Part shown: one piece after another, positions 2,645 through 22,474 of the stretch
Layout of the letters: every line of letters begins with the position of its first letter
Numbering within the stretch: the stretch's first letter is position 1
Notes under the pieces: model-generated
Seen by the model: only the letters and a program-made list of their open reading frames with translations
What the model was told of the DNA's origin: nothing
The model's database searches: none
IMG/VR virus record: IMGVR_UViG_3300035703_000016
Location: 32,001 to 96,000 of that record
Reading direction: 5' to 3' (one strand)
Origin: a virus
Length of the DNA stretch: 64,000 nucleotides
Translations under genes and position numbers: made by a program

Positions 2645-4441
2645 CTATTTTGATTCTAATATAGATTTGAACTTGAAGTATGATTTATGTTTTTCAACGC
2701 CTGGAATATTCCAACCATTATCGAAATCTTTTATCGTATGTTCTTGTTTTATATAATATTGCCATATTGGATTTTTTATATACTTTAACCATACACACAA
2801 AAGATCTTCTAAGTCAACGGGTTTCATATTATACCTTGCACAAAGTTTGTCAAAATCTTTATACTTAAATCCAGGTCTGAGAATTTTCATAGAGGCAGTT
2901 GCAGTTGGACCTAATTTACACTCAGACCACTCATCTATATCAAATAAACCTTTTATTTTTGTATCTAGATTCACATAATTTGCTAAATCCCCTGCCATTA
3001 ATAAGTAATGAAAATTAAAAGCATGTAGATTATGTTTGCTATTATACTGATTCATTACATCTACTATACCGCATAGACTTGTTTTTGGTTTAATATTCTC
3101 TATTATATGGTCTGCCCATGGTCTAAAATGATTAATAACAAGATCTTTAAGAGGATATCTAGGAGGTTGATTCACGCAACAACTAACAAAATTTCCCTTA
3201 TCTTCTTTCATAAACTTATAAAAGTCTACATGAGAATTATAATTTTGAAAATTTAAAAGAATAGTGTTATTATATCCGTGATTAAATTGATTTGAAGTTC
3301 CAGATCCAAAAATCCTATGAGAATAGATTAAAAATAAATAATCATATATTTCCCAATTTGGATTTGCAATTGGTTTATAAATATCCCAAGTAAGTGATTC
3401 TTTACCCATAAAATAGTCTTCAAGCAAGAATATAAATCCTTCATATCTTCTATCAATATTATGGAATAGGTTTACATTGTCTATGTAATTATCTCCAGTA
3501 TTAAACTCTCTTTTTCTTGTGTCAATAAAGACTTTTTCTGTCTTTCGGTTGATATCGATATAGTAATCCAAACACTCTAAAGCTATCGGATTCCATCCAT
3601 TTTCATCTAGTGTAATATTTGCTTTTGACTTTTTTTCTTTATCTTTTATCAAATACACGCTAGAAGATCCAGAGTTTTTTTCTTCTTCGTTAATAGGAAC
3701 TGGTTCTGCAAAATCATAATAATCTTCAGTCTTACATTGATATTCTTCTTGAGGAACTGGGGGGCTAGATAGAATAAGATCTGATATTGACGTCTTTACG
3801 TCTGGTGTTAGCATATTAAAATGCTTTTCATAGATATGCAAATTTGTTATAAAAAAATGCATTGTGCCAATTTGAGTATTTGTTTCAAAACAAACCATAC
3901 TCATTAATTTTGCAAATGTGTATTGATCATTTGAGAATCCATAGACTAAATCAATACTTCTTGCAAATACTGTAAGATTTAGTCTTCCTTCTACTATGGT
4001 GAAGTTTAGCACAATGTTACAGGGAGTGTCTGAGGCATACCTGTCTAGCTCATTTATATCGTAATGAACAATTATAGCTCTTCTAGTATTAGGGTTGCTC
4101 TTGAGCTCCTGAATAGCTCGTTCTAGCTGACCTCCTTTTTGCCAAAAATATCCATAGTTTGAATTCACTTCATTTGTACCAGGAACTATCATGTTATTCC
4201 ACAGTTTGGCTCTTTTAGCAATTTCAGTCACATCTCTATTTCCTGACAAATACCAATGCCACTCATACTCTGCGTAAGATTGGTTAAATTTTCTCTCTGG
4301 TTCTGTGATAACCATTTGAAGTGGATTATCTAAAGTAAAAGAGACATTAAATTTAGTTTTTGTTTTTGAAAAGTCTACTCCATTTTGCATTATATCAAAA
4401 TATAGACCTCTAAAAGCCTCATTTGCATTTTTAAAATTCAT
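2645..4441 (-). CDS. thymidylate-synthase-family (dCMP hydroxymethylase-like) domain fused to an aGPT-PPlase/amino acid:DNA transferase-like helical domain
   Basis: N-terminal ~210 aa: NSNYG, TRRA, DTPC, RSIDLVYGFSND, NLHIY. C-terminal: FHNIDRR, HRIFGSG, F..LLMAGDL, LGPTA, LEDLLC...KY. Confidence 0.75.
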   Translation of the reverse strand: MNFKNANEAFRGLYFDIMQNGVDFSKTKTKFNVSFTLDNPLQMVITEPERKFNQSYAEYEWHWYLSGNRDVTEIAKRAKLWNNMIVPGTNEVNSNYGYFWQKGGQLERAIQELKSNPNTRRAIIVHYDINELDRYASDTPCNIVLNFTIVEGRLNLTVFARSIDLVYGFSNDQYTFAKLMSMVCFETNTQIGTMHFFITNLHIYEKHFNMLTPDVKTSISDLILSSPPVPQEEYQCKTEDYYDFAEPVPINEEEKNSGSSSVYLIKDKEKKSKANITLDENGWNPIALECLDYYIDINRKTEKVFIDTRKREFNTGDNYIDNVNLFHNIDRRYEGFIFLLEDYFMGKESLTWDIYKPIANPNWEIYDYLFLIYSHRIFGSGTSNQFNHGYNNTILLNFQNYNSHVDFYKFMKEDKGNFVSCCVNQPPRYPLKDLVINHFRPWADHIIENIKPKTSLCGIVDVMNQYNSKHNLHAFNFHYLLMAGDLANYVNLDTKIKGLFDIDEWSECKLGPTATASMKILRPGFKYKDFDKLCARYNMKPVDLEDLLCVWLKYIKNPIWQYYIKQEHTIKDFDNGWNIPGVEKHKSYFKFKSILESK

Positions 4442-9489: not shown

Positions 9490-11799
9490 TTAGTGAGCGT
9501 CTTTAAAGTTTCTTCCTATTTCAGCTGGCGCTTTTAGTTTTATACTTATTTTTGTAGTATTCTCCATTAGCTGTTGAACTAACTCTGCGCATTCTTTAGC
9601 TCGGTCTTCTGGAACTTCGGTTATTATTTGGTCATGTATTTGTCCGCACACTTGTCCGTCAATTCCTCTTTTCTTTAATTCTCTATTTATAGCTATAGCT
9701 GCTCTATTTACTATTGATGCTGATAAACCTTGAATTTGTACGTTAAGTGCGTTATTTAAACCATTGGAGTAATCCCTATAGATCTTTGTTACTTTGTCTT
9801 TTCCATATTGTTTAGACAGCATATTTCTAATCTGCCAATCCATTATACCCTCTCCAATGATGTCATGTATTTTTTTAACTTTATCTAAATGTCTTACTCG
9901 ACCTACTTGAGTTTTTACATATCCCAAAGTTTGAGCTTGAGTTCTAGAGTCATGCATCCATTGTTTCAAGGCAGGAAATCCATTTAAATATCCGTCTACT
10001 AATGTCTGTGCTTTTTTCTGAGATACTCCTAATGTTTTTCCAAGAGCGTATGCGCCCATTCCGTAAGGTATTCCTAGAGAATATGCTTTAGCATCATTTC
10101 TAACTTTTGGCGCATGTTTCCTAAGAAAATTTTCTGACTTTTTATCTGGAGAATATTGATGAAGTCCTTCGGTTTTTATTGCAATAGTAGAATAAAAATC
10201 CCAATTGTTTCTAAATATATCTCTTAACCCCTCATCACCAGACACGTGAGCAAATACGTGAGGCTCTAATGACTCATAATCACAATCTATAAATACATTT
10301 CCAGTATCAGATATAAAAAATGCCCTAATCAAATTTGTATATTCAACTACTATAGGATCATCATCGCCTTCTTCTTTAGGTCTTGGTAATTGTTGAGCAT
10401 CTGACCCATATCTTCCTGAGACTGTGCCATGCTGTTTATAATAAAAAAAATACCTGCCGTTTTCTTGACCATCTAAAAACCTATCCATATAGGTAGATTT
10501 TATCTTTAGTAACTTTCCATATATTCTTAATTTAGAAGCCCAAGAATGTTGATCAGCTATGCTTTGAATTAAGTCTTCGTCAAATTGAGACTTACCTTTT
10601 TTAGTCTGAGAAAGAGGTTTTATTCCAAGAGCATTAAATGCAATATCTCCCATTTGATCTTTGGATTGTATATTGAAAAAAGCTCCATCATTTTCTTTTT
10701 TCCAAAGACTTATACTTATTTTATCTAAATCTTCTTGATCTAAAACATACTCAAATCCTTCTAATAAAAATGTTTTAACTGGAGATGGTGGTAATTTTGA
10801 TACAGTAGACTTTGTAATTGAATATTTTCCAGAAGTTTCTGAAATCGGTAAATCTAAATTAAAATATTTTGCTGTTTCTTGAGCGTATGATCCTTTATTT
10901 TTTGGTGGAAACATCTCTGTTGCCTTGTTCTTAATCCACCTTTGAACTTCTTTACGTTCTAGTAAATCATCAACGACTAGTCTTTCATATTTTTCCATAT
11001 CAAGAGTGATTTTTTCTCTTGATGATTTTATTAATTCAAGATCAATTTTAACTCCTCTATCTTCCATAGGAATTGTGACTTCTCTGTAAAGAGGCATAAC
11101 TTCATCTTCAAAAAAGAATTCAAGTAGTCCTTGTTCTTCTAATTTTTTAAGATAATACTCATATACTCGTAAAGCTAAATCCGTGTCAGCGCATGCATAT
11201 TTAGATAATATATCGATATTTGCTTTAAAAATTTCATAATTATCTTTAGAAGTAGATCCACCATTTGCTTTTATAGATTCTTTTAAGTCTATTTGCTCTT
11301 GATTTGCTTCAGTTTCAACATCAATTCCAATTTCTGATTGTATGCTTCTTGCAACTTCTTTTAATGCAAACACTCCTTGGCCATATTCAGAATTTACACC
11401 CTCTTCTTGAATAGTGTGAACCATAAGCAAAGTATCTGCATAAATAGAATCTATTAAATTTACACCATAGAAATTTTTAATAAATCTAGAGTCAAAAGAT
11501 AAATTATGTCCTATTAGTTTTTTTCCTACTAAAAGAAGTAAAATTTTCTTTGCTATATCATGACAAGAAATACCATCAATCTTAGCGTCCAGGAGCTCGC
11601 CATTAGCATATATCATTGTTGGCAAGTAGTAGCCAAGGCCTTTAACTCCAGTAACAGAGAATCCTATTATTTGACCTTTTCTAGTATTTAAGGAATCTGT
11701 TTCTATATCGACTGAAATATACTCATGTTCTTTTATATGAGCTACCATTTCTTTGACTTTAGTCGAAGTATCTACTTTCAAATAGACTCTTTCTGTCAT
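9490..11799 (-). CDS. polA: family A DNA polymerase with 3'-5' exonuclease
   Basis: ExoI DIET, ExoII HNLSFD, ExoIII YACAD; motif A DYESLE, motif B RNDAKAYSLGIPYG, motif C QIHDQ. Confidence 0.95.
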   Translation of the reverse strand: MTERVYLKVDTSTKVKEMVAHIKEHEYISVDIETDSLNTRKGQIIGFSVTGVKGLGYYLPTMIYANGELLDAKIDGISCHDIAKKILLLLVGKKLIGHNLSFDSRFIKNFYGVNLIDSIYADTLLMVHTIQEEGVNSEYGQGVFALKEVARSIQSEIGIDVETEANQEQIDLKESIKANGGSTSKDNYEIFKANIDILSKYACADTDLALRVYEYYLKKLEEQGLLEFFFEDEVMPLYREVTIPMEDRGVKIDLELIKSSREKITLDMEKYERLVVDDLLERKEVQRWIKNKATEMFPPKNKGSYAQETAKYFNLDLPISETSGKYSITKSTVSKLPPSPVKTFLLEGFEYVLDQEDLDKISISLWKKENDGAFFNIQSKDQMGDIAFNALGIKPLSQTKKGKSQFDEDLIQSIADQHSWASKLRIYGKLLKIKSTYMDRFLDGQENGRYFFYYKQHGTVSGRYGSDAQQLPRPKEEGDDDPIVVEYTNLIRAFFISDTGNVFIDCDYESLEPHVFAHVSGDEGLRDIFRNNWDFYSTIAIKTEGLHQYSPDKKSENFLRKHAPKVRNDAKAYSLGIPYGMGAYALGKTLGVSQKKAQTLVDGYLNGFPALKQWMHDSRTQAQTLGYVKTQVGRVRHLDKVKKIHDIIGEGIMDWQIRNMLSKQYGKDKVTKIYRDYSNGLNNALNVQIQGLSASIVNRAAIAINRELKKRGIDGQVCGQIHDQIITEVPEDRAKECAELVQQLMENTTKISIKLKAPAEIGRNFKDAH

Positions 11800-16138: not shown

Positions 16139-17524
16139 TTATTTTGAAAGTTCAAAGAACTTTTTACTTAGTATTGATTTTTCTTCAAATGTCAAACTTC
16201 CTGCAGAAGAAGATTTAAATTGTCCATTTGTTTGAGCCTGCATTGATTGAATTTCTTCTTCAGTCAATTCTTGTGTATCTATTTTTATAGAACCATTGTC
16301 TGTGTTTATTTGAGCGTTATATGTCATACCGTCTTGACCGTATCTATTTTTCATAATGTGCACTCTACCAGTTTTATTTAACTTATCGATTCTTTTTCTT
16401 GACAAAGACGCAATAAAATCTGCAATCATAATTTTATTATAAGATCCAGCAGCTTTATCGCCTTCTACAATGTCGTCTTTTGCTCCAGCCCTATTAACTT
16501 GAGAAACAGACCATATTGGTGTATTTAATTCTCTTGCCATTCCCTTTATAGCTGTATATACGTCGTCTATTTCATCCTTTATATCCACAGATTTTCTATT
16601 TGATTTTAATAAATCAATATAATCTATGATAATTAAGTCTGGTTTGTGTCCTAAATCTATACATTTTCTTATGTGAGATTCTATAGTATTAACAGTTGTT
16701 TTCCCCATAGGAAACTCTTTTACTATGAGTTTTCCTGGTATATTTTTTATAACCTTTTCTACAGTTTCTCTATGATTATAAATCTCTTTAAAGTCTATAC
16801 CGGTTAATACCGAATCGTATCTTTTTCCAGTATAAATATCTGAAAGTTCTAATGTATAATGAACAACAGTAAAACCGTTCTTGATAGCGTACGCCCCTAA
16901 ATTAACTAGGAACCAAGATTTTCCACTCCCCGGTCCACCAAATATTAATCCTAAATCTCCTCTTCCCAGTCCTCCCATTAAATGTTGATTAATAATGTCC
17001 CATGGTGTTGGAATTGCAGCTCTATCATCTTCTCTGTGTCTTTGTTCTATATCTTTGTCATACTCATGTCCTATATTTTTATCTGCTCCTGCTTTTAAAG
17101 CTCTATCAATAATAGAACGAATGTCTTCAAATTGACCTTTTCCTAATAAATCTACTGAATTAAGTAATGCCTTTTTTAATTGTTGATTTTTACAAAATCC
17201 AGAAAATTCTTGTTCTATATAATCCCTGTCTTCATTTGCGGCTTTTAATGATTCTTTGACTTGCTCTGCTACTGATATTTTTAATACCTCATTATCTATT
17301 TTTTTTACTTCTACTTGTAAAAATTCTAATGACGGTGTTGTGTGGTATTTATAGTAGTACCTTAATATCTCTTTTACTATCCACTGAGACGCTGGGGAAT
17401 CAAACATTTCAGGCTCTATAACATCATTGATTGTCTGTAGAAACTCTTTATGCTTTAAAAGTGAACTAAGCACTTTTATTTGAAAACCTGAACCGTACGC
17501 GTTAAGCGTATTTAATTGTGCCAT
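16139..17524 (-). CDS. dnaB: replicative helicase (DnaB/T4 gp41-like)
   Basis: GGPGSGKS Walker A, YTLE, IIIDYID, SQVNR, KNRYG. Confidence 0.93.
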   Translation of the reverse strand: MAQLNTLNAYGSGFQIKVLSSLLKHKEFLQTINDVIEPEMFDSPASQWIVKEILRYYYKYHTTPSLEFLQVEVKKIDNEVLKISVAEQVKESLKAANEDRDYIEQEFSGFCKNQQLKKALLNSVDLLGKGQFEDIRSIIDRALKAGADKNIGHEYDKDIEQRHREDDRAAIPTPWDIINQHLMGGLGRGDLGLIFGGPGSGKSWFLVNLGAYAIKNGFTVVHYTLELSDIYTGKRYDSVLTGIDFKEIYNHRETVEKVIKNIPGKLIVKEFPMGKTTVNTIESHIRKCIDLGHKPDLIIIDYIDLLKSNRKSVDIKDEIDDVYTAIKGMARELNTPIWSVSQVNRAGAKDDIVEGDKAAGSYNKIMIADFIASLSRKRIDKLNKTGRVHIMKNRYGQDGMTYNAQINTDNGSIKIDTQELTEEEIQSMQAQTNGQFKSSSAGSLTFEEKSILSKKFFELSK

Positions 17525-17541
17525 AACTATTTATATTATTT

Positions 17542-18552
17542 TTAATTTGTACTTAAATACCTAAAATTAGTAAACAACCAAGTTTGAGGATTTGTTATAC
17601 TTTTTCCTAATTCATCCTCATTATACATTTCTATAAACTCTGAAGGATAATAATCTTTTTTTGCGTCTTGCACCATTTGATCTATTTCTATCTTTGCATC
17701 TTCTGGAATATTAGTATCTTCTAAGTCCATTAATTGCTTATTTATATATAGCTGATTCTTAAAGTCATATATTTTATTTAGCAATGGAACTTTACTATCT
17801 TTACATTTATCTAAGATATTCTCTAGATTAATAGTAACTGATTCTCCCAATTCAGGAAAATGTTTTAATAGAGTCTTGATTCCTAATCCTTTTACTCCAG
17901 GTACATTATCGCCTTTATCTCCTAATAAAATCTTTTGAGTTAAGAAATTTTTAGATGTGACTTCATATTCTCTTAATACGTCGTGTGGTCCATAAAATTT
18001 CTTTTTAGTAGGAGAATATATAGTTACTCTATCAGACGCTAGTTGAAGATAATCTCTATCAGAGGACATTATTGTTACTTCTCCATCAATACGTTTTGTT
18101 ATATATCCTATAACATCATCTGCTTCTATTTTATCAATGCATAAAAGATCCACTGGCAGACATTTTAAATAATCTATTAGTCTCACTAGTTGATTTTTTA
18201 TTGCGTCTCCTTCTTCTTCTAATGAATCAAATGTATCCCAATTTGTAATTCTTTTTAGTCCTCTATGGGCTTTATATTCTGGATATAGATATCTTTTATT
18301 TGTAGAACTACCTTTTCCGTCAAATACCACTATGACTCTGCTTGGTCGAACTAGTCTCATTCCGTAAGCCATTGATTTTAAAAATCCAGTCAGCGCTCCA
18401 ATGTGCTGTCCTGAAGGATTCGTATGCTGAATCATTGCGAACGATCTCAAAAAATTATTCAACCCGTCTACTATGAAAGTTTTAGATTTTTCATTAGAAA
18501 CAGATTTTTCATCTTTTAATGAGTCTAATATATCTTGATAATTGCTATTCAT
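17542..18552 (-). CDS. 5'-3' exonuclease / T4 RNase H-like flap nuclease
   Basis: VDG, VFDG, YPEYKA, EADD, SSDRD, GDKGDNVPGVKGLG. Confidence 0.92.
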   Translation of the reverse strand: MNSNYQDILDSLKDEKSVSNEKSKTFIVDGLNNFLRSFAMIQHTNPSGQHIGALTGFLKSMAYGMRLVRPSRVIVVFDGKGSSTNKRYLYPEYKAHRGLKRITNWDTFDSLEEEGDAIKNQLVRLIDYLKCLPVDLLCIDKIEADDVIGYITKRIDGEVTIMSSDRDYLQLASDRVTIYSPTKKKFYGPHDVLREYEVTSKNFLTQKILLGDKGDNVPGVKGLGIKTLLKHFPELGESVTINLENILDKCKDSKVPLLNKIYDFKNQLYINKQLMDLEDTNIPEDAKIEIDQMVQDAKKDYYPSEFIEMYNEDELGKSITNPQTWLFTNFRYLSTN

Positions 18553-18564
18553 AATTTTTATTTT

Positions 18565-19644
18565 TTATTCTGAATCATCAAAAATATCTGATGAATTTTC
18601 TGGTTCTTCTATTAAGTCAAAATCTTCAGTTCCCAAAGTCTTTAACCATTCATGAGCATGAGTCTTTTTATAAGATTCGATTTCTTTTTTATCATCATTT
18701 ATAAATCCATGAACAGTCATTATAACTTTTCCAATAGCTGTTACTCCAGTAATGTGATTTTTATCACAACTTAATCTAGTTCTTTTTGCAAACTCTACTG
18801 TTTTTCCATTTTTACTAGCATTTATTTTATTAGTGCCTGCATTTGTTATATTTCCAAAAGTTAAAACTAAAGAAGCGTCAAACCACATAGTATTACCACC
18901 TTTATTTTGCATTTTTGGTTGACCTAGTCTTACTTCTGGTTTTGCTACCCAAACTTTATTAATAGCAACTAATGTGTTTGTATATTTTTGACTTTCTTTT
19001 CTAGACATTATGATCCTTTGGTTGATAAAATTACCAAATTGTTGACTCATAGCTCCAGCATTCCACTCGTTATTATTGGAATTTGATTCTATGCTTAATC
19101 TACATGGAATTGATCCAACAGAATCCCAGAAAAAACAAATATTATAAGGTAGATTTTCTTTTTTTTGTTCATCTAATATATCAGCAATAAATGCAGAGAC
19201 GTCTTCTACACAATTCATTTTTTCTCTATCTACATAAATAAAAAATCCGCTATAGTCTACTACTTCTCCAGTAGTTTCATCTACTACTTCATCAAATTTT
19301 AATCCCATTGACTTTGCATGCTCCCAAGACCACTTCATTTCTGTAATTATAAAAACTGGTAAAATCCCCATAGATTGAGCACTAACTGCTGCTTCCAATA
19401 GCGCTGTTGTTTTTCCAGTATCTGAGTGACCTCTCAAAAGAGTTATATGACCTAATGGTATTCCTGAAATTTGTAAAGTATCTTGAAATGCTTGAGATAG
19501 AGGAATCCACCTAGTCTCTTTAAATTTTACAGAAGTGCTCGATAAATTTTTAGATTTTTTAAATTTATCTAAACTAAAAGAGCCCTTTATAGCATCTGAT
19601 ACACTAGAAATAACCCCTTCTTTTTTTTCTTTGTCTTTTTTCAT
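18565..19644 (-). CDS. RecA/UvsX-like recombinase
   Basis: GHSDTGKT Walker A, WDSVGS Walker B, IN..W, KGG, KNH. Confidence 0.85.
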   Translation of the reverse strand: MKKDKEKKEGVISSVSDAIKGSFSLDKFKKSKNLSSTSVKFKETRWIPLSQAFQDTLQISGIPLGHITLLRGHSDTGKTTALLEAAVSAQSMGILPVFIITEMKWSWEHAKSMGLKFDEVVDETTGEVVDYSGFFIYVDREKMNCVEDVSAFIADILDEQKKENLPYNICFFWDSVGSIPCRLSIESNSNNNEWNAGAMSQQFGNFINQRIIMSRKESQKYTNTLVAINKVWVAKPEVRLGQPKMQNKGGNTMWFDASLVLTFGNITNAGTNKINASKNGKTVEFAKRTRLSCDKNHITGVTAIGKVIMTVHGFINDDKKEIESYKKTHAHEWLKTLGTEDFDLIEEPENSSDIFDDSE

Positions 19645-19778: not shown

Positions 19779-20603
19779 CTACAGGTTAAATAGTTCGTCT
19801 ATTACTTTATCTGTATCTGATTTTTTTGTGCTAAGAGAAAAAGATTTTGGTTCAGCATCTTTTCCTTTTTGCCAAGGTAAATCTCCAGATGTTTCTGATT
19901 CTTCTATAACTGCTGCTGGTTTTTCAGTTTCTTCTTCAGGAGTCAAATGAGCCTGTAAAGCTGCTTTCATATCTTCATAAGAATGCTTTGTATACGCTTC
20001 TAGAGGATTTGGCTGCTCGGTTAACCACTTTTTAACTTCTGCTTCTTTTTCTGATAAAGGGGTTATTTTAGTTCTTACTCTTACTTTTGATTGAGTATAC
20101 TGTGTTCCATTCTGTTCTGGAGAAGTTGTTTCTATTGTGATATCACGTCCAGAAATAGGATCTGTATAATCGCCAACGTCTTCATCTTCCATAATAGCGA
20201 TCAGTTCCATATAAACTTGTTTGCTAAATTCCCAAAGCATTACACCTTTGTCTTCTTCTCCTCTTACTATTACAGGAACCATTACTCTCATTCTAGGTTC
20301 TAGCTTTTTAGCAAGCTGCCAATCTTCTTTATTTGAAGACTTTCTTAATTTTTGAGTAAATTCAGAAATAGGATCTTTTTCTCCATAATTAGAAGGAGAC
20401 ATCATCGTCTTATTGTTTATGCCATAATACACATAAACTTCTTTAAAAGGATTGGTTTTATCGAAAACTGATGGTAAGATTCTTACTGAATGTTTTCCTA
20501 CAGATGGTCTCCAAAGAGTTTTAGGTTTATTGTCTCCTTTTGCTGATTTTGGATTTTGTAATGCAGCTAATCGCTGCTTCAATGCTGAAATGTCAATTGC
20601 CAT
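19779..20603 (-). CDS. single-stranded DNA-binding protein (T4 gp32-like)
   Basis: LWRP...VRILP, DPI, GRDI, acidic tail ending DELFNL; position next to the recombinase. Confidence 0.85.
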   Translation of the reverse strand: MAIDISALKQRLAALQNPKSAKGDNKPKTLWRPSVGKHSVRILPSVFDKTNPFKEVYVYYGINNKTMMSPSNYGEKDPISEFTQKLRKSSNKEDWQLAKKLEPRMRVMVPVIVRGEEDKGVMLWEFSKQVYMELIAIMEDEDVGDYTDPISGRDITIETTSPEQNGTQYTQSKVRVRTKITPLSEKEAEVKKWLTEQPNPLEAYTKHSYEDMKAALQAHLTPEEETEKPAAVIEESETSGDLPWQKGKDAEPKSFSLSTKKSDTDKVIDELFNL

Positions 20604-20663: not shown

Positions 20664-21086
20664 CTATGAAGTCGTAATTATCTTATGAACTAGTGTATTT
20701 AATTTTCTAAATTCATTTCCTTGAGTTAGTAATAAAGAATTTTTATACTCATTCCAGTCTACAGAAACTCTACTATCAGAAATTCCATTATTTAATCTTT
20801 GTATTAAATTATTTAAAGCATTTATAGTATATAGAGTATTTGTTTCTTTTTTTCTATGAAGTAGTATAGTATTACTTATAATGTATGTTTGTTGATCTTC
20901 TACTTCGATATTGTAAGTACACATATATTCTTCTGATTCTGGAGAAGCAAGAACAAATATCTTATTATATAGGATTTTATATTGACTATTTATCTCTGCT
21001 AGTCTTTGATCTAATCTGTCTTTTGGAGTAAAGCTACAAAACAGCCTATTCATGAGTGATTGTTGCGTTAATGTTATCGATGCCAT
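20664..21086 (-). CDS. conserved hypothetical phage protein
   Basis: HRKKETNTLYTINALN motif; ATATTTAT at 21099-21106. Confidence 0.65.
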   Translation of the reverse strand: MASITLTQQSLMNRLFCSFTPKDRLDQRLAEINSQYKILYNKIFVLASPESEEYMCTYNIEVEDQQTYIISNTILLHRKKETNTLYTINALNNLIQRLNNGISDSRVSVDWNEYKNSLLLTQGNEFRKLNTLVHKIITTS

Positions 21087-21112
21087 AACCTTTTATTTAT
21101 AAATATCGTCTT

Positions 21113-22417
21113 TTAGTTAAAAAAATAAGTTTTTGAATGTCTATGTTTTACTTTAAATTCTCCCTCTTCTAAAATTTGTTTTACTTTTATTAAAAACTCT
21201 TTTCCGTCTTCTATAGAATAATCGAATAAAAAAGAATCATACGTAATAAGTACTAATTTACTTTTATAATTTTGCATCATTTCCCTTAGTTTCTCTATTT
21301 TATAAGAATTTACTCTTGTTTCTAAATTCTGAATCCAATAATTAAATAATTTAAGAGCAGTTATTTCAGAATCTCTTTTTAACATTATCCCCGTTGGTAG
21401 CGTTATGGATCCTTGTTTTTTATACTTAGCCCATATTTTGTTTATAAAATTATCTAAAGATGAAAAAAATAAATGTTTTTTGTATTTATCTTCTATTCCT
21501 CCATATAACTGTCTAAAAGTTATCTCTTTAGATTTATTATACTCTTCTTCTGTTAAATTACTTTTATTAAAGTATATTTTTCCTAATTGAGCGTGTATAG
21601 ACTCTTGAGTATCTTCAAATTGATAATTAATTTGCTTAGCTATTAGTCTTAAATGATAACTGTCAAAATCGAATTCTATTAAATAATCATATCTTGGAAT
21701 AAAACAATCTCTAAACTCTTTATTTTTAGGAATTGCTACAAAATTAATTCCGTTGTATGAGTTTGTAGGTCTACCTGTTGTATTATACATATTATAGTAA
21801 GAATATGCTAATCTAGATTTTATAAAAACTCTACTATCTTCTATTCCATATACTTTTTCAAATAATTTTTGATTTATGCAAATACCAGATTTCTCAACCC
21901 ACTTATATAAAAGGGATATTTTATTTAAAATAGAATAATCATTTTCTAAATCAATTAAAGATTGTACTTTATTGTATAAATTTTCACATCTTTCATAATG
22001 TTTTGTTATAGGAATAATTTCATTTATGCTATCTAATTGTCGTAGTCTTGAGTTAAATTCTCTATGTAAAATTGTACTATATTCTAGTTTTGATGAGTCT
22101 ATCCCCTGTTCTACTCTAGTAAATTGTAAATCTATAACATTCTCTAAATTTAAAAAATAAGAATGAAATTTATAATCCAATAAATACACTTTTTTATGGC
22201 AGTTTATGAAACATTCAATTTGAGCTACTTCTAGGCTAAATCCTTCGCTATGATTCACTGAGAGTATATAACCTTTAGTTCCATCATTATAATAGACCAG
22301 AGAGCATCTGGATAGCTCAGGATGGCATTTATCTGAAGATGGTATTAATTGAATGAAACAAACATCGCTTTTTGGTAAATTATCTAATTGTTCTTTTGTT
22401 TCAATAATAAAATACAT
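21113..22417 (-). CDS. short, divergent family A polymerase paralogue
   Basis: TTGRP.N, motif A DFDSYHLR, motif B K..TF..LYGG, motif C TYDS; exonuclease motifs degenerate. Confidence 0.8.
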   Translation of the reverse strand: MYFIIETKEQLDNLPKSDVCFIQLIPSSDKCHPELSRCSLVYYNDGTKGYILSVNHSEGFSLEVAQIECFINCHKKVYLLDYKFHSYFLNLENVIDLQFTRVEQGIDSSKLEYSTILHREFNSRLRQLDSINEIIPITKHYERCENLYNKVQSLIDLENDYSILNKISLLYKWVEKSGICINQKLFEKVYGIEDSRVFIKSRLAYSYYNMYNTTGRPTNSYNGINFVAIPKNKEFRDCFIPRYDYLIEFDFDSYHLRLIAKQINYQFEDTQESIHAQLGKIYFNKSNLTEEEYNKSKEITFRQLYGGIEDKYKKHLFFSSLDNFINKIWAKYKKQGSITLPTGIMLKRDSEITALKLFNYWIQNLETRVNSYKIEKLREMMQNYKSKLVLITYDSFLFDYSIEDGKEFLIKVKQILEEGEFKVKHRHSKTYFFN

Positions 22418-22474
22418 GACATAACCTATTTTTATTAAAGTATTTTATTTTTTGAATTTTTTTTAACTTTTGTT

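Follow-up and report, generated by a model that had tools for sequence, protein, structure and literature searches.

A second DNA polymerase of family A has been described in 14 phages by Yutin, Tolstoy, Mutz, Wolf, Krupovic and Koonin (2024, Virol J 21:200) under the name divPolA1. It is characterized by a truncated thumb and a dead exonuclease domain, it is encoded alongside a further polymerase of type PolA, PolB or PolC, and it was judged likely to retain DNA polymerase activity (PMC11348598). The Immutovirus-like phages that carry it have genomes of 155-190 kb with the regular polymerase gene located near GroEL/GroES, features common to the phage analysed here, and Flavobacterium phage vB_FspM_immuto encodes a full-length homologue, gp001, followed by the same gene order as in our phage. 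In the literature searched, we found neither a later paper on divPolA1 nor a test of its activity.

Other enzymes with a family-A catalytic core provide the terms of comparison. In DNA polymerase I the residue at the steric gate, Glu710 of the Klenow fragment, is said to be universally conserved in family A, and the E710Q polymerase is slow (PMC3715850). Single-subunit RNA polymerases have a Gly that opens the gate and a His that contacts the 2'-OH (PMC11617373), as well as an Arg in motif B, a thumb and promoter-recognition elements, namely a promoter-binding N-terminal domain and a specificity loop (the three residues are G542, H784 and R627 in T7 RNAP, where H784 is taken here to stand at the Q849 position of Klenow). 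The PolA-SSB primases CcPol-MP (Bebel et al. 2020, PMC7581432) take the place of the primase; they retain Glu710 and prime with dNTPs, and their truncated exonuclease domain is bound by an OB-fold partner. Rice (2022) linked the short last helix of the shortened CcPol thumb, which would make space for an initiating triphosphate, to de novo initiation, and A-family polymerases can prime with an SSB partner (bioRxiv 2022.12.02.518924).

The window analysed here, a stretch of 64,000 nucleotides, is part of a complete phage genome of 158,434 bp. It contains an open reading frame of 434 amino acids that heads a row of replication genes:

21113-22417, minus strand: divPolA1, 434 aa, family-A polymerase fold (homology profiles and model); dead exonuclease domain at about 1-160, remnant of the thumb at 175-205, then palm and short fingers
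20664-21086, minus strand: conserved 140-aa protein, nearly always between divPolA1 and the SSB gene (locus comparison)
19779-20603, minus strand: gp32-type single-strand DNA-binding protein (SSB)
18565-19644, minus strand: RecA/UvsX-like recombinase
17542-18552, minus strand: stand-alone 5'-3' exonuclease (Pol I 5' nuclease / T4 RNase H type)
16139-17524, minus strand: DnaB-like replicative helicase

Single-sequence searches of Pfam and PDB gave no match and barely registered this reading frame, and its recognition needed family profiles, which match the Klenow and Bst polymerases with E of about 1e-9 and, in profile comparison, a PolA profile with a probability of 99%. With Immutovirus gp001 it shares 35.2% identity over 99% coverage (E 3e-74). 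The gene is the divPolA1 of Yutin et al., so that it is not new in itself, its family having already been named (PMC11348598); the truncated thumb, the dead exonuclease domain and the intact palm Asp residues are shared, and nothing separates our gene from the family.

The family is considerably larger than the 14 phages listed in 2024. One search returned 1105 matches, and at E below 1e-30 we count 634 clusters at 50% identity, a number that rises to 1508 at E up to 0.001, where the tail may include ordinary PolAs. Microcystis phage Mel-JY01 (PP395634, locus L085; the deposited host is cyanobacterial) and a 484-kb jumbo phage (LR756508, L086), both with PolB as the main polymerase, carry the divPolA1 module beyond the previously described set of 155-190 kb genomes. 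A search for longer or fused forms, which is weak evidence of their absence, returned only a 1328-aa record without a contig (P0390), in which divPolA1 is joined to SecDF and which is probably an assembly chimera. At a single locus (L067:2298-3596) the gene is broken into reading frames of 148 and 221 aa, by a frameshift or a sequencing error.

The order baseplate genes, divPolA1, 140-aa gene, SSB, RecA, 5' nuclease and DnaB is found in most of about 170 loci, and the marine clade shows the same order with an inserted gene. The position of divPolA1 ahead of the replication genes is fixed in freshwater, marine and cultured phages, and carriers with PolA and carriers with PolB as main polymerase both retain the module; divPolA1 is also reported to accompany PolC (PMC11348598). 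In the marine loci (L089-L168, e.g. L092:7309-11389), the immediate upstream neighbour of divPolA1 is often ThyX, and between divPolA1 and the 140-aa gene stands a variable gene (450-780 aa) with no known family. The 140-aa protein is more conserved than divPolA1 (6196 matches); in 54 diverse members, 25 positions never vary, an H-R-K-K run among them, and the two proteins occur in the same six phage records; in one relative, their genes are not adjacent. Sequence searches of the atlas and PDB were blank for the 140-aa protein, while fold searches with its model gave no clear match, only weak ferredoxin-like alpha/beta similarities in the N-terminal half (Z up to 5.4), with no OB fold among the matches listed. 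A complex prediction for the two proteins scored 0.00, a value that carries no weight for or against their interaction.

The residues of the divPolA1 active site were mapped by profile alignments to Klenow and other PolAs, which give the equivalences D250=D705, H255=E710, H275=H734, Y293=R754, K297=K758, F301=F762, Y305=Y766, Q363=Q849, Y393=H881, D394=D882 and S395=E883, together with R216=R668 and N359=N845 among the readers of the template and minor groove. The key positions lie in the window as follows:

21668-21670, minus strand: Asp250, catalytic Asp of motif A (D705), invariant in 146 representatives
21653-21655, minus strand: His255, at the position of the Klenow steric gate Glu710 (profile mapping), 144 of 146
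21503-21541, minus strand: motif B, with Tyr293 (R754), Lys297, Phe301 and Tyr305 (profile alignment)
21320-21322, minus strand: Glu366, at Klenow Ala852, three residues past Q849, 146 of 146
21236-21238, minus strand: Asp394, catalytic Asp of motif C (D882), invariant in 146, preceded by Tyr393, which replaces His881

A preliminary description of this gene, made from the sequence, had read most of these features correctly: a reading frame with both catalytic Asp residues, the Lys, Phe and Tyr of motif B, the loss of the exonuclease motifs and the replacement of Glu710 by His. The last holds for all 120 close homologues and for 144 of 146 diverse divPolA1 representatives (26-62% identity), the remaining two, P0185 (L204:10001-11329) and P0191, having Gln at the gate and retaining Glu366. 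Conservation across so large a family indicates that the His gate is a family trait under selection and not a product of decay. D250, D394, K297, R216, P217 and E366 are invariant across the 146 representatives, and F301, Y305 and Q363 nearly so. The reported change of Arg754 to Tyr is true of our gene and of 107 of the 146, and it is not fixed, since 11 members have Arg, and in some the helix turn is absent. What the preliminary description had missed is the deletion of the thumb and the shortening of two finger helices.

The AlphaFold model of divPolA1 (pLDDT 97) matches Klenow in a structure search over its full length with Z 22.5 (422 residues aligned, rmsd 3.5). For T7 RNAP, N4 RNAPII and mitochondrial RNAP the scores are 7.5, 8.1 and 8.9, with T7 and N4 entries listed at Z 6.7-8.1. 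The N-terminal domain is modelled as a DnaQ-type exonuclease, in which no carboxylate motif is conserved among the 146 representatives; a dead exonuclease domain is likewise kept as a scaffold in Taq and Bst. The thumb is almost wholly deleted: the interval from E175 to R216 comprises 23-43 residues, mostly about 41, as compared with well over 100 in Klenow, and the O1 and O2 helices of the fingers are shorter by roughly 15 residues. Klenow has ten listed contacts with the DNA backbone (PMC10520511); six of them belong to the thumb that is deleted here, N678 is replaced by Ala, and N675 alone is clearly kept. The equivalents of the strand-displacement residues S769, F771 and R841 (PMC10520511) lie where the sequence is shortened or not conserved. 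R668, Q849, N845 and Y766, which read the base pair, are all retained. In comparison with canonical Pol I, divPolA1 thus shares the overall fold, motifs A, B and C and the residues R668, Q849, N845, F762 and Y766, and differs in the near absence of the thumb, the shortened O1/O2 helices and the changes E710H, R754 mostly to Tyr, H881Y and A852E; the Klenow-type fold and the three motifs expected of family A are present, and Glu710 and Arg754 are not. Two features considered as marks of a special function were rejected. The last thumb helix is short in all 146 representatives (9-11 residues from N225 to R236, against 15 in Klenow), but this spacing is shared by an ordinary phage PolA, and that of Aquifex Pol I is shorter still, so that it is not diagnostic of a primase. 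The Ser after the motif C Asp, part of a Ser-Phe pair shared with T7 RNAP, is also carried by ordinary phage PolAs.

The invariant Glu366 sits one helical turn beyond the Q849 position, where ordinary PolAs that could be read carry Ala. In a motif alignment of T7 RNAP and N4 RNAPII, an Asp (D787 in T7 RNAP) follows at a distance of three residues from a His, which in T7 RNAP is His784 and which we take to be the equivalent of Klenow Q849. Provided that this equivalence holds, Glu366 would match these Asp residues, and an acid appears at the Ala852 spot in both lineages that lost Glu710. Glu366 may pair with His255, as a candidate contact, and may represent either compensation, in which a His-Glu pair remakes the floor of the pocket, or an RNAP-like feature. 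The His gate and its possible partner Glu366 are unreported in the literature searched; the text of Yutin et al. does not contain the word 'steric', nor does it discuss the gate, Arg754 or Glu366 (PMC11348598). Nor did that literature yield a paper on T7 D787 or on the mutants E710H, E615H and E658H. The use of rNTPs does not follow from E710H, since His is bulky and RNA polymerases use Gly (PMC11617373). Judging from the residues, His255 could either block or bind the 2'-OH, dNTPs appear to be the likelier substrate, and a relaxed exclusion of rNTPs is a real but minority possibility.

The rest of the genome supplies three proteins that bear on the role of divPolA1, the last two of which are encoded outside the window:

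9490-11799, minus strand: full-length PolA, presumed replicative polymerase, with Glu512 at the gate and intact exonuclease motifs
genome positions 105985-106947 (L001:9985-10947), minus strand: DnaG primase (PHROG, E 4.8e-43)
genome positions 108692-109426 (L001:12692-13426), plus strand: 244-aa sigma-70-region-2-like protein (weak profile match)

The full-length PolA keeps the gate Glu, as had been stated, and both proteins are of PolA type; the term 'paralogue' used for divPolA1 is nevertheless loose, as BLASTP finds no similarity between the two. In this main PolA the F762 position is occupied by Leu575, and a long insertion separates the primer-grip motif from motif A. The preliminary description had also argued from the absence of a primase or sigma factor, which is true of the reading frames scanned in the window; the argument fails because the genome encodes DnaG and a probable sigma factor elsewhere. 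DnaG keeps the zinc-finger Cys/His and the TOPRIM acidic motifs, and its gene lies about 50 kb from the helicase gene and adjoins a fused SbcD-SbcC gene of 1042 aa. It is found in all four full-length divPolA1 genomes tested, so that ordinary priming is covered; two carrier genomes without DnaG and the sigma-like gene were rejected as true absences, being fragments that miss the surrounding region and its genes. In the family of the 244-aa protein, three of seven members match sigma-70 region 2 weakly, and its close neighbours in the atlas are named as sigma factors. As there is no sequence match in PDB, this region-2-only protein is termed only a probable phage sigma factor. DnaG and the sigma-like gene are also present together in Immutovirus, Mel-JY01 and the 484-kb phage.

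Two elements near divPolA1 suggest how the module is expressed:

22435-22442, minus strand: degenerate early-type promoter box before divPolA1 (by eye, against the genome's early promoters)
21099-21106, minus strand: late-type element ATATTTAT before the 140-aa gene

The former is one mismatch away from the early box of this phage, with spacing one base short, and is weak here. Among freshwater relatives, 25 of 71 have a host-type -33/-7 pattern in front of divPolA1 (3.9 expected), and ATATTTAT precedes the 140-aa gene at 57 of 67 freshwater loci (1.0 expected), counts that are not independent tests because the loci are related and the control is a simple shuffle; before divPolA1, ATATTTAT was found at none of 71 freshwater loci. 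It occurs 12-30 bases ahead of many structural genes in the genome. The picture from marine loci, where the two patterns overlap, is less clear, and a generic sigma-70 scan gave nothing above chance. divPolA1 is likely to be the first gene of the replication module and of early or middle class, with the 140-aa gene regulated separately. The sigma-like protein is a candidate for the recognition of ATATTTAT, which reproduces most of the T4 late promoter as its reverse complement.

As the best explanation we propose, tentatively and with somewhat less than even confidence, that divPolA1 is an accessory polymerase that works distributively and without proofreading on short primers or gaps. Expressed early or in mid-infection, it would bind the template and the incoming nucleotide in the usual way, His255 and Glu366 probably rebuilding the floor of the pocket that Glu710 forms in Pol I. 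Without a thumb it would be unable to grip a long primer-template duplex, it could not proofread, strand displacement would probably be lost too, and it would most likely lengthen short or unusual 3' ends by a few nucleotides. Working with the SSB, RecA, 5' nuclease and DnaB encoded beside it, it might extend RNA primers made by DnaG or RecA-invaded ends until the replicative polymerase takes over, or else fill gaps after the neighbouring 5' nuclease has removed primers, as a split, minimal Pol I. Short-patch synthesis is the most economical role because DnaG and a processive polymerase are already present. However, plain gap filling leaves the strict retention of divPolA1 unexplained, since carriers of PolA type own a Klenow-like enzyme and a 5' nuclease, and the loss of primer-side contacts with retention of template-side ones counts against this reading too, as it would equally be expected of a de novo initiator. 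The loss of Arg754 and Glu710 should moreover make ordinary dNTP incorporation slower, which also counts against it.

In the main rival reading, divPolA1 would be such an initiator, a further enzyme dedicated to priming and comparable to CcPol-MP, which would start RNA, DNA or mixed chains at the origin or at restarting forks, assisted by gp32 or some other protein that binds ssDNA, with the lagging strand left to DnaG. The A-family catalytic domain, the reduced thumb with its short last helix and the gene position upstream of a small protein, SSB and helicase are common to both enzymes, SSB and helicase genes adjoin the divPolA1 region, the gate Glu is lost, and the acid three residues after Q363 would, by motif alignment, match T7 RNAP D787 and N4 RNAPII. 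We nevertheless consider this idea doubtful. DnaG is intact in every full-length carrier tested, the short helix is found in ordinary polymerases, and CcPol-MP itself keeps the gate Glu. Besides, the exonuclease fold of divPolA1 is complete, the model of the small neighbour gives weak ferredoxin-like matches with no OB fold among those listed, its gene has another promoter type and in one relative stands apart, and the SSB encoded two genes away, gp32, differs in kind from the small partner of CcPol-MP. A related proposal, in which divPolA1 would be a natural intermediate between DNA and RNA polymerases of the A family, His255/Gln363/Glu366 would be a rearranged T7 Gly542/His784/Asp787, a contact of His with the 2'-OH would admit rNTPs, and RNA primers would be started or extended alongside DnaG for origin firing or fork restart, we regard, taken as a whole, as unlikely. 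The late single-subunit RNA polymerase reading ATATTTAT, which would agree with the lost gate Glu, the probably early expression of divPolA1 and the clear late-type element before structural genes, is hardly credible, in view of a fold that scores Z about 22 with DNA polymerase I and only Z 7-9 with the T7, N4 and mitochondrial RNAPs. There is also no profile match to N4 RNAPII, the gate His255, Gln363 and Tyr293 differ from the RNAP residues, a 3'-exonuclease fold stands in place of the promoter-recognition parts, a thumbless enzyme is poorly suited to operons of many kilobases, and the conserved sigma-like protein is a better candidate reader.

The loss or change of the thumb, O1/O2, Arg754 and His881 around an invariant metal-binding Asp pair and Lys758 would also suit a nucleotidyltransferase with little or no template dependence, engaged in tailing, capping or single-nucleotide addition at nicks or recombination ends; retention of R216 (R668), Q363 (Q849), N359 (N845) and Y305 (Y766) points to templated base pairing and makes this improbable. 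A polymerase for modified or damaged bases, active in lesion bypass or in copying hypermodified DNA, would benefit from the absence of proofreading and the remodelled pocket, and relatives do hold base-modification genes, such as the DpdA and Que genes of the 7-deazaguanine pathway in Immutovirus. This suggestion, made earlier for our gene, fits poorly and is quite improbable, as the active-site signature is constant while the nucleotide-metabolism genes of the carriers differ, and divPolA1 is tied to the core replisome cluster rather than to modification genes. The several changes in residues of Pol I chemistry, and the lack of an identified gp59-type loader among the neighbouring genes, could be accommodated by a catalytically dead scaffold or fork-binding factor, e.g. 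a helicase loader, but even representatives at 26% identity keep both catalytic Asp residues and the Lys of motif B, and we give this little credence. From the earlier proposals there remains a specialised polymerase with an altered sugar pocket, which the residues support and which is probably active; late transcripts are unlikely products of a Klenow-like fold.

The divPolA1 gene belongs to the core genes of an abundant phage group, and Immutovirus on Flavobacterium offers a cultured model. Its study would show whether a His gate admits ribonucleotides and how sugar selection in family A can shift, and why a phage that owns a replicative polymerase and DnaG retains a thumbless second polymerase. 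The gate-Gln members P0185 and P0191 are natural variants bearing on sugar selectivity, and a natural PolA tolerant of rNTPs or 2' substituents could serve as a reagent. If divPolA1 did make RNA primers, it would represent a new priming system in very widespread aquatic phages. Elsewhere in the window, the thymidylate synthase gene (2645-4441, minus strand) has a fused C-terminal part of about 380 aa, for which neither Pfam nor PHROG gave a match, and stands beside dCMP deaminase-like, dUTPase-like and unknown genes; this region is possibly a base-modification module.
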